In this document: in pieces, positions 9,001 to 15,000 of the stretch
Numbering within the stretch: position 1 is the stretch's first letter
Layout: every line of letters starts with the position of its first letter
Virus record (IMG/VR): IMGVR_UViG_3300042273_000448
DNA: 64,000 bases
Reading direction: 5' to 3' (one strand)
Source: a virus
Position numbers: made by a program

Positions 9001-12000
9001 AAAACTTTGATCTCTAAAGACGTAAATATGCATACCAACATATCTTACACCAAAATCTCTTGCGGCGTTTAGATCAATATCAATATACTCAGATGCTCCA
9101 TCAGGACCCAGGGCTTCAATCACATCTCCTGAATGTTGGGAAAATCTATTTATTGTATGTCTATAAGAACATTCTCCCATTTTTGAAAAATTTTCTGAAT
9201 AAAATGAAGCTGCTAAATCCAGATCATTCCCAATCCAAAACATGAACATCCGTAATGTGTTATCCCCATTAAATGGCATACATGTTCCTCTAGAAACAAT
9301 CTTCTTACCTGGGGTTGCATTTCTTAGACCATTGTTGATAGAGGTTTTAAACATATCATTCGAGATATATACCTTTCCTAATGGCTCCAATTTAGAAAAT
9401 CTATTTTGCAAAGTTTTAAAAATCAACCCAATAAGCTTATTTTTATAAAGTCTCATTAACGTTGGATATTCATTGGTCTTTTTATTCACCCAGAACTTTG
9501 TCTTCATTCCCTTTGGAAAAAATACTCTATTTTCTAAATTATCATTAATGATAAATGAATATAGCTGATAAAGAATTTTATTAGGAATAGAATCATCCTT
9601 CAATACATTCTCAATATAACCAAATAAATGCCTAACATAAGTTACAGGACAACCTTCCAATACAATAAAAAGTCTACTAATATTACGAACAAATACCCCA
9701 GGTTTATGTTGCAAATGCTCAAGAAGAGAAATTAATGTTTCTTCATCTTTATACTCAATATATGAATTAAACAAAGATTCTGTTACATTATTAAAAGTTC
9801 TAACTTTGAACTTTTCTCTAACTACTTTAGACCATTTGAATAGTTTTGGGGAGAATTCCCCAATATGGATACAGTGGAAAAGTTTTACCCATTTGTTTTT
9901 ATGAATAAGAAGATCATCAAAAGAAAGATTTGTAGAGTCCAAAAGCTCAACAATAAATTTTCTTTCTGGTCTATTTAATTTAAATTTTGTATTTTCTGCA
10001 AGAGAAATATCTCCCCCTGAAAGAGCAGTAGCAATTCTAAGAACATCTGTTACAGAATATCTCTTTCCAGAAATAAAAGCATTTTTGATATGTACTGAAC
10101 TTCCAAAATGCTTGAAGATTATAGAAACAAAAATAGCTAGATGTTCCTTATGGATAATACTATCTAAAATATTAGGTAAACGATCCACATCATGCTCATC
10201 AAAAAGAAGAGGAACAGAAAGTTTAATAAATTCAATATCATCTACAGGTAGTGAATTCTTGGAACAAAGCAGCTTATCAAAAACAAGCTCTTTAACATCA
10301 TTTATAGAAGCAAATGACAACTCAGTAAATTTGAAATTTTCATCGATTCGGATTTCCCTTTTTTGTTTTTGTGTGATTTTGATATCATCAGGGAAGAAAG
10401 AACCTCTAGAATAATAATGAGAAATAGCTAATAGTCTTTGCTCAAAAAGAGAAAATGGAACATTAGGAAAATTCTCATAAAACACCCTAGCATTTTGAAT
10501 AAGTTTCTTTGAAGTGATAGTTTCAAGAGCAGTTTGAAGATTATCAAAAATCTGAGCAATTTGATAATCATCCATAGACATTAGATCATCAAACATCTGA
10601 CGAGAGGGAATATAACCATATTCCATCATCATAGATGCAAATGTATGAGCTACTTGAAAATCTGTTGGATTATAAAGATATGTTCGTTTTTGAGTGCGAA
10701 GATTTGTGATTGCAGGGCAAACTACCATTTTGTATTTAATAGCAGAAAGAAATAGATCAGACATTTTTACCTCACAAAATTAAGAATGGAAATTGGGTAA
10801 AGTATTTTTTATTTCATAATTAATTAGAAGGAACTTTACCCATAGCCATATAAAATGTAGGAAAGCAGCAAAACTATTTTTATGTAGTGATCCTTAATAA
10901 GAAGGAAGTTTTACTATAGCCTACTGACATTAGGAAATTGAATTTACTATTTACAAATTAACGGTTTGTTCCTTTGGGAGGAAGTAAATTCATAGCCTAA
11001 AATTTAAAGATAAATTTCAATTTCACCTGGGTCATTAAGAACTACACATTCAATAGAATCATTTTCTTCCATGTTTTCAAGAGCTTTTTCATATGAATAA
11101 TAGGGGAAACTCTCTGTTTCAGTTCTAACAATCCACATAGTGATCATTTTTATTTTCCTGGTTTATTGTTTGTTGATAAATTATTTATAAGTTAGGTCAA
11201 AGAACATGTAAACAAATTATTTTTGAGCGGTTAGTCGGAATTGAACCGACATCTCCAGTTTGGAAGACTGAGATAATAACCATTATATGATAACCGCTTT
11301 TGGTCAGAGTGGGAAGAATCGAACTTCCACTACGTGCGTCCAAGGCACGGATGCAACCACTACATTACACTCTGATTGACCATCCATAAAAATTTGGTAC
11401 CCCCGGTAGGATTCGAACCTACACTGTTCAGCTTCTAAGGCTGCTGTCTCCTTCCAGTTGGACTACAAGGGTAAATTGGTGTATCTAGTCAGGGTCGAAC
11501 TGACATAATCCGGATTGAAAGTCCGGTGCACTAACCATTATGCTATAGATACATTGGAGCCTCCACACGGAACTGACCCGTGAACTAGGGGTTACAAATC
11601 CCTCGTTTTTCCAGTTAAACTATAGAGGCGTAATAAGTAGAAAATACTGGCCTACGTCCAGTAGCGTTTTAGACTTCCACCGCTTATATTTCTACTAGAT
11701 TTGTGTTTTTCTTCTATATACCTCGTATTCTTTTAAATACTTATTCATATACCTTTTGACTTGTGTATGGGAACAATTTCATAATTTGGAAACTTTATCT
11801 ACCCAACCATATTTCGTCAAATCTATTCCAGATTTATCTAATAGTTCTCTTCTTTCGATTATTAAATTATTATTAAAGTTCCCTAATTTTAGAACTGTAG
11901 CTTTATCATGTATTCATGTTATTGTGTGTTTTAAAATTTTTATTTTTTCTTTTTTGATATTTCTATTTCTATGAACGTCAGATTCAACACAACTATTTAA

Positions 12001-15000
12001 ATCTATTCCCAATCTTTCTAATTGTTTCTTTTGTAAAATGCGTATTTTTTTATCTCTATTATATTGTATAACGTACTTCATTTTCTCTTTATCTGAATTC
12101 ATGAATCATCCTTTAACTTCATGGTATTCATCCAAATCAGGTAAATAAAAATCTGGAAAGTAGTGTCTTTCTATTTTATTAAAATATTTTAATATGTATT
12201 TTCTTGAATGGACCCACTTTATATTTTGTTTATTAAGATATTCTGCATACTTAAACTCCCATGTACCTTGTACATTAACATAATCTTCTATATAGGGACA
12301 ATATATTTTATAATATTTTGTTTTAACAAATCCAGAATTTGAAGATTCTTCTAGATTTTTTATTCTACCTTTTGAAATAGATTCTCTATGTTCTTTAGAG
12401 AGGTGTTTTCCTTTTAGTGGGTGTTTTATTTCTCCCGCATTATATCTTTTTATATATGTTTCTGCACCTTTAGCAACTCTTTCATCTGTTTCTTTTGTTA
12501 AACCCTTATTTCATTCTCTTTTTCCATCAAGTTGAGAATAACTTCTTTTGCCTTCTCTGTGTTCTCTTTTTAACGAGATTGATTTCTTTTTTCTATAATT
12601 AGGACATTGTGAAAATTTTTTTGAGCAACATCATTTTCCATTTTTAAATTTATATTTAGCTTCTTGGCCGCACCCATATTCACATTTCATAATAGATATA
12701 TTCTCCTTTGTTTGAACCTAAATATCTATTTATATTTTTAAAAAAGTAAATTGCGTTTCAACTAAAATGTGGCCCCGGTAGGGTTCGAACCTACACGCAG
12801 TTTTTTCCTGCCGAAAATTTTGAGTTTTCGTTGTCTTCCTATTCCAGCACGAGGCCATATCTACTTCTTATCAAGGATTAACCATGTTGTAAACAAAAAC
12901 TATTCTCCAACTTCTTCACAGAATGGAATCTGTTCCCATTCAATTGCTGAAATATCTTCAGCCCTTACTGAGCAATTCTCAAACTGTAAAATCTTTGCTT
13001 TACCAGAATACCAATTATCATAAAGTTCAAAATATGTATCTTCATCATATTCTGCAGTAAGAATGTAACCATTTTTGAGATAAAGATCAACAGTATTCTT
13101 AGACATTATACTCTCCTTTAAACAGATTGTAAACAAAAAACTTTTTGGTGGAGCCAGGGAGACTTGAACTCCTAACCCCCTGCGTGCAAGGCAGGTGCTC
13201 TCCCAGTTGAGCTATGGCCCCATGTTTTTGCTCCGGGAGTAGGGGTTGAACCTACGACCGAGCGGTTAACAGCCGCTTGCTCTGCCACTGAGCTATCCCG
13301 GAATATTCAATATTAAATTTTTAAAGGGCACCATTCAGGTACTTCTTTAGGTTCTTCGCTTTCATATTCTACATAACCAGTAATAAGTTTATTATTAACT
13401 GTGCATGTATAATCATACGCACACCCAGCATTAACTGTTACAGATTTTTTAACTTTAGGACACTGAAGACAACTTTCGACTTCCAATTTGATAGTGGTCA
13501 TACCCTCATTTCTCCATTCGTAAATGTGGCCCATACACTTTAAGTATCCCCTATATGTTCCAGATAAAAACCACTTTGGAACAGTATGTGCTTTCAATTT
13601 TCTATATATACCATTCTCATCTACAACATACTCAAAAAATATTGTTAGGTTAGTATCATCTGTCTTTTCAATTACGCCGGTATGAAAAATTTTAACACCG
13701 TCCACATACAATATCAACATATTTTTTCCTCTTACTGATCCATTACCATTTCAGTTTTTGCAGTAACATAGATCTCACCAGACTTAGATTTAATAGTAAT
13801 ATGGGATTTTGATACCTTAGTAACAATCCCGTGATAGAGAAAGTCAGATGCACCTTTGTGCTTGCCTTTGTAAAACTTTACTTCATCACCTTTCTTAATC
13901 TTTTTGACTTCTGGGTCGATTTCTTCAAGCAAATATCTTTTTAAGTTCATTAAGCCTATCCTTTAGTTTGTTTGAATAAAAATATATTTATAATAAACAT
14001 AATTAATTGTAAACAAAAAATTTCTAATAACCGCAACTTCCATTATAATGCTCCCACTCTTCTGCCTCTTCGCGCTTTCTTCTTTCCTCTAAAGATTCAG
14101 TGGGTTCATAGTCTTCATCCAAAAATTCATTCTTTTCCTGTTCTGCACTTGTTAGCCATTTCTTATACATGATTATTCCTCTTCAAAAAATTTTTGTTTA
14201 AATTTGCGGCACTTTCTACGATCCTTTTCACGTTTCTTATCTTCATGTGCAACTTAGGGATTACGCATACAATGTCTTTGTTTAACCTTTACATCAAGAA
14301 TACCATTTTCAAAAATTTCTTCGAAGAGTGCAGGATTAATTTTTCCCATTTCTAAATCCTATTTAACTTTAGGGGTAGGTTTAAAATCTCTATTTCCAAA
14401 AATATATTGAACATAATTCAAAGGAAAAGACACTTTTCTATCTTTAATAGAAAGAATAGCTTTATTGGATTTTGCTCTAAAAGAAATCTTCATAAACAAG
14501 CCCCTTATTTTTTTATCTATTTTTAATAAATTTATAAAACAAACCAAAAAACATGTAAATCATAATTAATGGTGAAGGAAAAAATAATTTAATTTTATGA
14601 CCTGTTCTTTCTAAAAATTCTTCTTTTGAAAGGGCCTCCCTAGTAAAATTATCAAATCAATAACCATTAGCATAACCTACGGCGTGGCCTCCGCCAGATC
14701 GAGTTTTTGCAAAATATATTCTATATCTATGTAATATAAAAACATTTAAAATAAATGTAAATATATTTTTGTTACATGCATATCAAATAGATGTAAGAGC
14801 AAAATCTTCACAATCTCCGACCATAACATCTGATTTTTTCATAATATACCATAAATCTGCAATGTAAATCTTTGGATCTTTCATATACTGAAATCTTTTA
14901 CCTACAAAAGATACCGCATCCCTAATATTCATTTTTAATCTCCTCCAAATGATTCTTAAGAAAATTTAAAATATCTTCTTTATCATTTGTAATTTTATTA

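Follow-up and report, generated by a model that had tools for sequence, protein, structure and literature searches.

A stretch of 64,000 nucleotides from the IMG/VR virus record IMGVR_UViG_3300042273_000448, referred to below as the window (the whole stretch of DNA that was analysed), contains an array of eight transfer RNA (tRNA) genes, an endonuclease-like gene among them and, nearby, a gene for a tRNA nucleotidyltransferase. One member of the array, located at 11395-11472 on the minus strand, combines the leucine anticodon UAG with a short variable arm. In this work, we describe this molecule and argue from sequence comparisons that it is very probably a working tRNA-Leu belonging to a widespread, horizontally shared family of short-armed phage tRNAs.

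The tRNA array and the structure of tRNA-Leu(UAG)

tRNAs were called over the window with ARAGORN and with the Rfam tRNA covariance model, including a permissive Rfam scan. ARAGORN called exactly eight tRNAs, which lie between 11225 and 13302 and are all encoded by the minus strand. Seven of them were matched at full length by the Rfam model, with 49.8-69.7 bits (E values from 1e-7 to 4e-13), and the remaining one, tRNA-Leu(CAA), was matched when laxer filters were applied. No ninth tRNA was found in the window by ARAGORN or by the Rfam tRNA scan. The isotypes and positions of the original prediction, which had been obtained by manual folding, agree with both methods, and within 11200-13320 ARAGORN called the same eight tRNAs, the UAG anticodon included:

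11225-11297, minus strand: tRNA-Gly(UCC), without encoded CCA (ARAGORN and Rfam)
11301-11374, minus strand: tRNA-Pro(UGG), CCA encoded (ARAGORN and Rfam)
11395-11472, minus strand: short-variable-arm tRNA-Leu(UAG), 75 nt plus encoded CCA (ARAGORN; Rfam 51.6 bits)
11477-11552, minus strand: tRNA-Glu(UUC), CCA encoded (ARAGORN and Rfam)
11555-11629, minus strand: tRNA-Thr(UGU), CCA encoded (ARAGORN and Rfam)
12769-12856, minus strand: tRNA-Leu(CAA), type II, 88 nt, with a long variable arm, without encoded CCA (ARAGORN; Rfam 35.5 bits)
13146-13221, minus strand: tRNA-Ala(UGC) with G3-U70, CCA encoded (ARAGORN and Rfam)
13230-13302, minus strand: tRNA-Asn(GUU), without encoded CCA (ARAGORN and Rfam)

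The CCA end can be read directly from the sequence in five of these tRNAs (Pro, Leu(UAG), Glu, Thr and Ala), and the three that had been described as lacking it do so, being followed by CAA (Gly), CAU (Leu(CAA)) and CAA (Asn). The G3-U70 pair of tRNA-Ala was recovered in the covariance alignment, and the minimum free energy (MFE) fold of tRNA-Leu(CAA) is a cloverleaf whose variable-arm stem has 4 bp. The layout differs from the two clusters proposed earlier, as the array consists of three groups: Gly-Pro-Leu(UAG)-Glu-Thr; Leu(CAA) alone past a 1.1-kb spacer; and an open reading frame (ORF) of 68 aa followed by Ala-Asn. tRNA-Leu(CAA) is thus isolated between the endonuclease-like ORF and the 68-aa ORF.

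The covariance alignment agrees with the UAG anticodon and the short variable arm that had been reported for 11395-11472. It places the anticodon (cta on the plus strand, 11435-11437) in a loop of 7 nt, CUUAGAA, and the covariance fold, which might have assigned a different anticodon, reads UAG and suggests no alternative register. The variable loop consists of 5 nt, ACAGU, and does not form the long stem-loop of a type II tRNA. The acceptor stem is ACCCUUG/CGGGGGU with A1-U72 at its top, the D arm has a 3-bp stem with C13 and A22 unpaired and the D loop AACUGGAAGG, and the T arm, GUAGG-UUCGAAU-CCUAC, carries a canonical T loop. The discriminator base is A73, after which CCA follows. The elbow is canonical, with G18G19 and the UUCGAAU T loop, and A14, A15 with U48, and A20a are also kept. 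The MFE fold of this single sequence has -19.8 kcal/mol (z = 0.18 against shuffled sequences), and the D stem is absent from the prediction. We regard this result as uninformative rather than negative, and the structural argument is therefore carried by covariation.

Family, probable identity and probable decoding role of the short-armed leucine tRNAs

In a blastn search against isolated phages with Leu(UAG) as the query, 83 records were matched, 64 of them near full length, and nearly all are already labelled tRNA-Leu. The hosts of the phages concerned include Streptomyces, Bacillus, Gordonia, Pseudomonas, Prochlorococcus, Synechococcus, Microcystis, Lactobacillus, Rhodococcus and Microbacterium, and the family is found most abundantly in actinobacteriophages. 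Cultured phages with family members include Pseudomonas vB_PseuGesM_254, Bacillus P59 and many Streptomyces phages. In the loci that were fetched, ARAGORN called leucine tRNAs of 73-78 nt with the anticodons UAG, UAA or CAA, which are often adjacent to each other and sometimes stand beside a normal long-armed tRNA-Leu. The family is thus already public under the plain label tRNA-Leu, where it has passed without comment. No paper describing a short-armed phage tRNA-Leu was found in open-access full texts and bioRxiv, which is no proof that none exists. The Leu(UAA) tRNA of Syn9 was studied experimentally in cyanophage (PMC11726456); Syn9 is absent from the blastn matches, and no link between it and the family was seen.

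The breadth of the family was examined further with scan patterns that were fixed in the D and T arms and at the end of the variable loop, with the anticodon left free. The strict pattern matched 22 viral contigs and 11 contigs in the genome collection, and the looser one matched at least 119 viral contigs. Among the matches listed, there are 124 distinct family sequences, and their anticodons are UAA (62), UAG (32), CAA (21), GAG (4), CAG (3) and AAG (2). All six leucine anticodons are therefore represented and no other anticodon occurs, and A73 is present in 124/124 of these sequences. The family is characterized by a 5-nt variable loop ending in G47-U48, the D-arm motif UAG-YCC-AAYUGGNAG(G)AGRC-A, the GGUUCGAAUCC T arm, and A73.

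Some carriers stand out. Two large viral contigs of 194-199 kb contain whole series of these molecules: L016 (1650-2303) carries short-armed leucine tRNAs with the anticodons GAG, UAG, CAA, UAA and CAG, as if substituting the whole leucine tRNA complement of its host, and L014 (1936-2317) carries UAA, UAG, UAA and CAA. One identical, solitary short-armed tRNA-Leu(UAG) was also seen in contigs of Actinomycetota/Pseudonocardia metagenome-assembled genomes, some of them megabase-sized (L036-L040, L042, L044 and L045; in L038 at 645-720). Its neighbours there are housekeeping-like (an Rv3818-like gene, saccharopine dehydrogenase, a DNA methylase), obvious prophage genes being absent, and the short form may therefore also reside in cellular chromosomes and not be strictly viral.

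Evidence that these molecules are maintained comes from an alignment of 26 distinct members (A1). In this alignment, 98.7% of the cells fall in standard pairs, and 17 of the 20 base pairs have changed on both sides. The alignment reaches a covariation score of 0.81, compared with 0.22 after shuffling and at most 0.15 when the partners were slid. Pair 3-70 is never G-U. At pair 1-72, a G1-U72 wobble is found in 14/26 members and G-C in 11/26, and the window has A1-U72 (11472 with 11399); G1-U72 is an unusually weak top pair for tRNA-Leu. Every invariant column of the alignment is present in the window Leu(UAG), which is matched by both scan patterns. A covariance model (R1) was built from 24 members, with the window sequence and that of the relative L008 left out. 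Leu(UAG) of the window scored 91.1 bits against it over its full length (E about 6e-25), compared with 47.1 bits for the best of the other window tRNAs and 29.6 bits for the long-armed Leu(CAA).

Two relatives, L007 and L008, allow the array to be compared position by position. In L007, whose NrdD is 74% identical to that of the window and whose gene order is the same, the equivalent array position beside Pro(UGG) is occupied by a long-armed Leu(UAG) at 15471-15552, of 82 nt and with a 13-nt variable region. At the equivalent position of L008 (11194-11269), the short form is found, as at 11395-11472 of the window. The short form (75 nt) of the window and L008 is 87% identical to a copy in a Pseudomonas phage. 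L008 holds the closest relative of the window copy, and their T stems, GUAGG/CCUAC in the window and GUUGG/CCAAC in L008, are set apart by a double compensatory change. This arrangement, in which a long and a short tRNA share position and anticodon, suggests that the two forms have been swapped by horizontal replacement, and as far as their sequences tell, they look like holders of one decoding job. The relatives carry Gp23, gp32, SegE-like and T4 glucosyltransferase-like genes, which makes the phage T4-like. When the whole locus was compared with isolated phages by megablast, no near-identical match emerged, and this phage is known from metagenomes only; genes identical to its own occur in the sequencing runs SRR351749xx and SRR351836xx.

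A pseudo-tRNA was among the explanations originally offered. Such a molecule, a decaying and unused remnant deprived of its arm, would account for a short arm that is abnormal for leucine, for the mismatch G27/A43 in the anticodon stem together with the weak 3-bp D stem, and for a predicted fold no more stable than that of shuffled sequences. A remnant would not be expected to belong to a family found in at least 119 viral contigs, to keep its loops invariant and its CCA encoded, or to score 91 bits against a model built without it, and the cloverleaf is maintained by compensatory changes at 17/20 pairs across the family and in the T stem relative to L008. The family covariation, the L008 change and the R1 score together rule out the pseudogene reading for practical purposes, and we consider it extremely improbable.

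The amino acid carried by such a tRNA can be approached through what is known of the synthetases. Only those for Leu, Ser and Ala recognise their tRNAs independently of the anticodon (PMC9976931, PMC11028032). The occurrence of one body with anticodons of both the UUR and the CUN boxes fits a synthetase of this kind, i.e. that of leucine, serine or alanine. Alanine is argued against because pair 3-70 is never G-U in the family, and serine because the long arm and G73 are lacking, which leaves leucine. In Escherichia coli, leucine identity depends on A73 (crucial), A15-U48, G18G19 and A20a; the anticodon and the long arm are not needed, and arm-less variants are active (PMC9976931). The tertiary elements listed for E. 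coli leucyl-tRNA synthetase (LeuRS) are A15-U48, G18G19, A20a, G18:U55, G19-C56 and U54:A58 (PMC9976931), and the window Leu(UAG) has the bases of all of them at the corresponding positions. In the same 161 sources, the long arm was kept by 83/85 serine tRNAs and 27/32 tyrosine tRNAs. The retention of the arm in these tRNAs and its loss in the leucine tRNAs fit the use of the arm by seryl-tRNA synthetase and bacterial tyrosyl-tRNA synthetase but not by LeuRS. An unusually built leucine tRNA, the second of the explanations offered earlier, is thus strongly supported by the anticodon census, the covariation and the R1 score.

The following course of events would be consistent with these observations. 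Leu(UAG), which has its own encoded CCA, would be transcribed within the minus-strand tRNA array of this T4-like phage, and the three tRNAs lacking this end would be completed by the CCA-adding/repair-type enzyme of the phage or by a host enzyme. Going by the published biochemistry of the E. coli enzyme, the host LeuRS could charge Leu(UAG) with leucine, because the elements it needs are kept and both the anticodon and the long arm are dispensable in E. coli. The charged tRNA would then supply the decoding of CUN codons.

Several points weigh against this reading. In addition to the G27/A43 mismatch, position 37 is A, as it also is in 18/33 UAG family members; the CUN-reading leucine tRNAs of E. 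coli have m1G37. The loci of the census were chosen by pattern, and it shows the breadth of the family without measuring its frequency. Other tRNAs of this AT-rich phage share A14, A15-U48 and G18G19 (Glu and Gly have A15 and U48), so the identity elements are compatible with leucine and not diagnostic of it. The D-arm region is not globally closer to that of long-armed leucine tRNAs, whose mean score of 3.0 (Leu_long) lies within the range of the other isotypes. Finally, LeuRS enzymes of other bacteria appear to take notice of the arm: its orientation matters for the Aquifex enzyme (PMC2377443), and Arg921 of the Mycobacterium tuberculosis enzyme contacts it (PMC3561953).

The meaning of the CUN codons was examined in the NrdD-like gene (18340-20337), which was aligned with 95 homologs of at most 60% identity. 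Across them, CTT columns are 70% and CTA columns 68% leucine; in columns conserved at 80% or more, CTN corresponds to leucine in 12/12 cases and TTR in 8/10. By this comparison, CUN is leucine in this phage. Codon usage was counted in window ORFs of at least 80 aa (standard-code calls), where the leucine codons include CTT (33%), CTA (14%), CTC (4%) and CTG (3%); CUN makes up 54% of the leucine codons and 4.6% of all codons. With CUN so heavily used, a leucine tRNA that reads it would be useful to the phage.

These data bear directly on the proposal that CUN might be reassigned. A tRNA that receives another amino acid in place of leucine could reassign or blur CUN in the manner of yeast mitochondrial tRNA-Thr(UAG), which the combination of a type I body and a leucine anticodon does resemble, and the phage departs from the standard code elsewhere, at TGA. 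The NrdD-like columns do not bear this out, as the CTT and CTA columns behave like those of TTR codons and all of the conserved CTN columns are leucine. With 7 nt, the anticodon loop is of normal size, the alanine determinant G3-U70 is absent, and the same body with UAA and CAA anticodons in other phages is inexplicable by a reassignment specific to CUN. We assign only a minimal probability to such mischarging.

A further explanation is that the RNA is mainly non-decoding, with leucine delivery being secondary. It might act as a sponge or decoy that occupies a tRNA-targeting nuclease or toxin of the host, or it might offer a target for recombination or homing. Phage tRNAs are known to counter tRNA-cleaving defences, SegB cuts within tRNA genes of T-even arrays (PMC13096335), and an endonuclease-like gene is present in the array of the window. 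A decoy, however, has no need of leucine anticodons, of U33 with a purine at position 37, or of A73. The restriction to leucine anticodons, the conservation of U33 and purine-37, and A73 in every one of the 124 listed sequences are what decoding and charging by LeuRS demand, and a mainly non-decoding role is very unlikely.

Recoding of TGA and the genes around the array

Throughout the window, genes with an apparent end at TGA continue in frame beyond it, by up to 1000+ codons. When only TAA and TAG were taken as stops, the ORFs reached a coding density of 87% and contained 94 in-frame TGA codons next to 169 TGG. By a hand count of the ORF list, TGA occurs in 32 of the 67 ORFs; those affected include the terminase, the tail sheath, the helicase, a 1401-aa ORF and all endonuclease-like genes, and regions such as 26811-28916, 39616-41556, 51594-55799 and 56391-57881 may serve as examples. 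The CCA enzyme, a 722-aa ORF beside the tRNAs and several gene blocks are free of TGA. In alignments with L007 and L008, TGA of the window coincided with tryptophan 15 times (11 times with TGA, 4 times with TGG) and with other residues 6 times, and TGG of the window coincided with TGA of the relatives 5 times. Since TGA and TGG interchange at tryptophan positions, TGA is, on the evidence of these alignments, tryptophan in this clade. This is the real departure of the window from the standard code, and it was missed in the original description.

Among TGA-recoded phages in general, a suppressor tRNA was detected in 35% of genomes only (Borges et al., bioRxiv 10.1101/2021.08.26.457843). The TGA-to-Trp (code 4) phages of that study resemble the window in placing TGA at tryptophan positions and concentrating it in structural, packaging and mobile-element genes, and also in their many TGA-free genes and low guanine-cytosine content. 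The window differs in representing a T4-like myovirus lineage, and in its 64 kb, no UCA suppressor tRNA (by ARAGORN or the permissive Rfam scan), release factor 1 or tryptophanyl-tRNA synthetase was seen. Any annotation of this genome must allow for TGA as tryptophan in a T4-like lineage.

The other features of the array and its surroundings are:

11695-12690, minus strand: free-standing endonuclease-like ORF of 331 codons, with 5 in-frame TGA and 3 TGG (PHROG, weak tblastn)
12727-12734, minus strand: TATAAATA, a T4-type late-promoter-like motif 37 nt upstream of the start of the endonuclease ORF
12900-13106, minus strand: conserved 68-aa ORF between tRNA-Leu(CAA) and tRNA-Ala, 69% identical to the ORF at the equivalent place in L007
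14922-16253, minus strand: class II tRNA nucleotidyltransferase with an HD domain (Pfam, PHROG, PDB), 1.6 kb upstream of the array

The ORF at 11695-12690 forms a single open frame only when its five TGA codons are translated (as Trp). It has an N-terminal cysteine-rich motif, NUMOD3-like motifs recognised by eye, and a nuclease core of the form ...FPDFY...EVKG.... It was matched by the PHROG endonuclease families 15137, 945 and 9019 ('endonuclease'/'Holliday junction resolvase', E values from 5e-8 to 2e-6) and, weakly in tblastn, by genes of T4-like and huge phages annotated as 'endonuclease I'. No Pfam, NCBIfam or PDB sequence match was obtained, and none of these searches recognised a homing-endonuclease catalytic domain. 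The ORF is sporadic among close relatives: no homolog was found in L007, where Leu-CAA and the next tRNA are only 13 nt apart, or in L008, which has an unrelated NUMOD4/HNH ORF elsewhere in its tRNA array. The earlier designation of a homing-endonuclease gene in the spacer thus holds in so far as the gene is endonuclease-like, free-standing and sporadic, and a Pfam endonuclease domain was not found. It may be a mobile gene as in T-even tRNA arrays, supported as endonuclease-like. SegB, a well-studied precedent (Brok-Volchanskaya 2008; PMC13096335), is similarly encoded by a free-standing nuclease gene that lies within T-even tRNA arrays and is variably present among relatives. The ORF of the window differs from it in lacking a GIY-YIG domain, its core being T7 endonuclease I- or PD-(D/E)XK-like by PHROG and annotation matches only, and in requiring that TGA be read as Trp. 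The neighbouring 68-aa ORF had no Pfam or PHROG match.

The motif TATAAATA occurs 33 times in the window, against 15.6 expected, a number reached by 0/100 shuffles. It corresponds to the T4 late-promoter consensus, and several copies closely precede the start of a gene and have the matching orientation; a late-promoter function is inferred. The motif was also seen at 28943-28950, 41607-41614 and 57902-57909 (minus strand), and often just upstream of TGA-containing genes (the endonuclease ORF, the terminase and the tail sheath). This hints that the recoded genes are late genes.

Three further endonuclease-like ORFs lie on the minus strand at 56391-57881, 6080-7474 and 37527-39479. Two of the three have many tandem 'YGEEEGTRRYNEW'- or 'KYGDENYNN'-like repeats before a ...PDF...E.K nuclease-like C-terminus, and in the ORF at 56391-57881, all nine tryptophan codons are TGA, with no TGG. 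The large terminase gene (25447-28916, minus strand) is broken up into two overlapping ORFs with Terminase_6N and Terminase_6C pieces, and its region holds intein-splicing-like segments (C...SHN motifs) and a GIY-YIG-looking, NUMOD3-containing endonuclease segment; the terminase of L007 is uninterrupted, with 654 aa.

A nucleotidyltransferase gene had been placed at 14922-16253, and its product is indeed a class II enzyme with an HD domain. All four Pfam models concerned, PolyA_pol, PolyA_pol_RNAbd, tRNA_NucTran2_2 and HD (PF01743, PF12627, PF13735, PF01966), were above their cut-offs, the PHROG tRNA nucleotidyltransferase family was matched with an E value of 5e-73, and in the PDB the CCA-adding enzymes 6ibp and 1miv matched best. 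The product thus combines a nucleotidyltransferase head with an RNA-binding body, and its HD domain is of the kind seen in multifunctional enzymes of CCA addition and repair. TGA codons are absent from the gene, which is syntenic in L007 and L008. Among the NCBIfam models, those for CCA addition ranked at the top, yet every equivalog model stayed below its cut-off, and PcnB models matched too, so specificity for CCA is likely and not proven. The product is a probable CCA-adding enzyme by these matches. Bacteria have a CCA-adding activity of their own, and the supply of the missing CCA ends by the phage enzyme is for this reason only plausible. To the left of the window, a family B DNA polymerase and an Rnl2-type RNA ligase are encoded (L050, 10633-11580), and the first complete ORF of the window (1046-2158) encodes a T4 glucosyltransferase-like protein. 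The combination of the Rnl2-type ligase with the HD-domain CCA enzyme suggests, from gene content, a capacity for tRNA repair.

Two independent assemblies with a CCA enzyme identical to that of the window (L046 and L047) both stop about 1.75 kb downstream of that gene. By arithmetic from the coordinates, these ends correspond to about position 13174 of the window, within tRNA-Ala. The tRNA/endonuclease region may thus be variable within the population.

Precedents and implications of the short arm

Compared with the canonical type II tRNA-Leu, such as that of E. coli or Leu(CAA) of the window, Leu(UAG) shares the leucine anticodon, A73, A14, A15 with U48, G18G19, A20a, the 3-bp D stem with positions 13 and 22 unpaired, and the canonical T loop. 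Its variable loop, of 5 nt, takes the place of a stem-loop of at least 13 nt. The family further differs in its 1-72 pair, which is mostly G-U (A-U in the window), and in a D arm that is not specifically like that of long-armed leucine tRNAs. Descent from a type II tRNA-Leu by simple deletion of the arm is not claimed, as the D-arm similarity test gave no leucine-specific signal.

A current review describes the long arm as a universal feature of tRNA-Leu, with animal mitochondria as the exception (PMC9976931). The animal mitochondrial tRNA-Leu is the closest natural precedent, being a type I cloverleaf with a leucine anticodon and A73 that is recognised without a long arm, as would be the case here. 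In contrast to it, the phage family keeps the full canonical elbow and T loop, and it is carried by phages of Proteobacteria, Cyanobacteria, Firmicutes and Actinobacteria. Because the carriers are bacteriophages, a bacterial-type LeuRS would have to charge its members. The closest functional precedent is the engineered arm-less tRNA-Leu of E. coli (Larkin et al. 2002 and Asahara et al. 1993/1998, cited through PMC9976931), which is active with E. coli LeuRS and in which, as in the phage family, A73 and the tertiary contacts of the D and T loops are kept. Those variants are laboratory constructs, whereas the phage family is natural, conserved and widely distributed.

The likeliest reasons for the loss of the arm are the tolerance of LeuRS and the advantage of a minimal body that works in many hosts, and possibly escape from host factors that recognise long variable arms. 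Such factors include retron-Eco7 and Septu PtuAB, directed at tRNA-Tyr, and MenT3, directed at tRNA-Ser. By analogy with them, the whole family might be an anti-defence adaptation, invisible to nucleases or toxins that recognise or cut type II variable arms. We regard this broader idea as rather unlikely; if true, it would explain the spread of the body among phages of four bacterial phyla and the complete sets of short-armed leucine isoacceptors in some phages.

With more than 120 relatives in phages of four phyla, the short-armed family would be a natural exception to the long-arm rule and a natural experiment on what a bacterial LeuRS really needs. It may also serve as a marker for annotators, for whom a type I phage tRNA with a leucine anticodon need not be a pseudogene or a sign of a changed code. 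For the biology of phages, the family would offer a testable lead on why they carry tRNAs of their own, and the presence of its members in cultured phages makes the experiments feasible.

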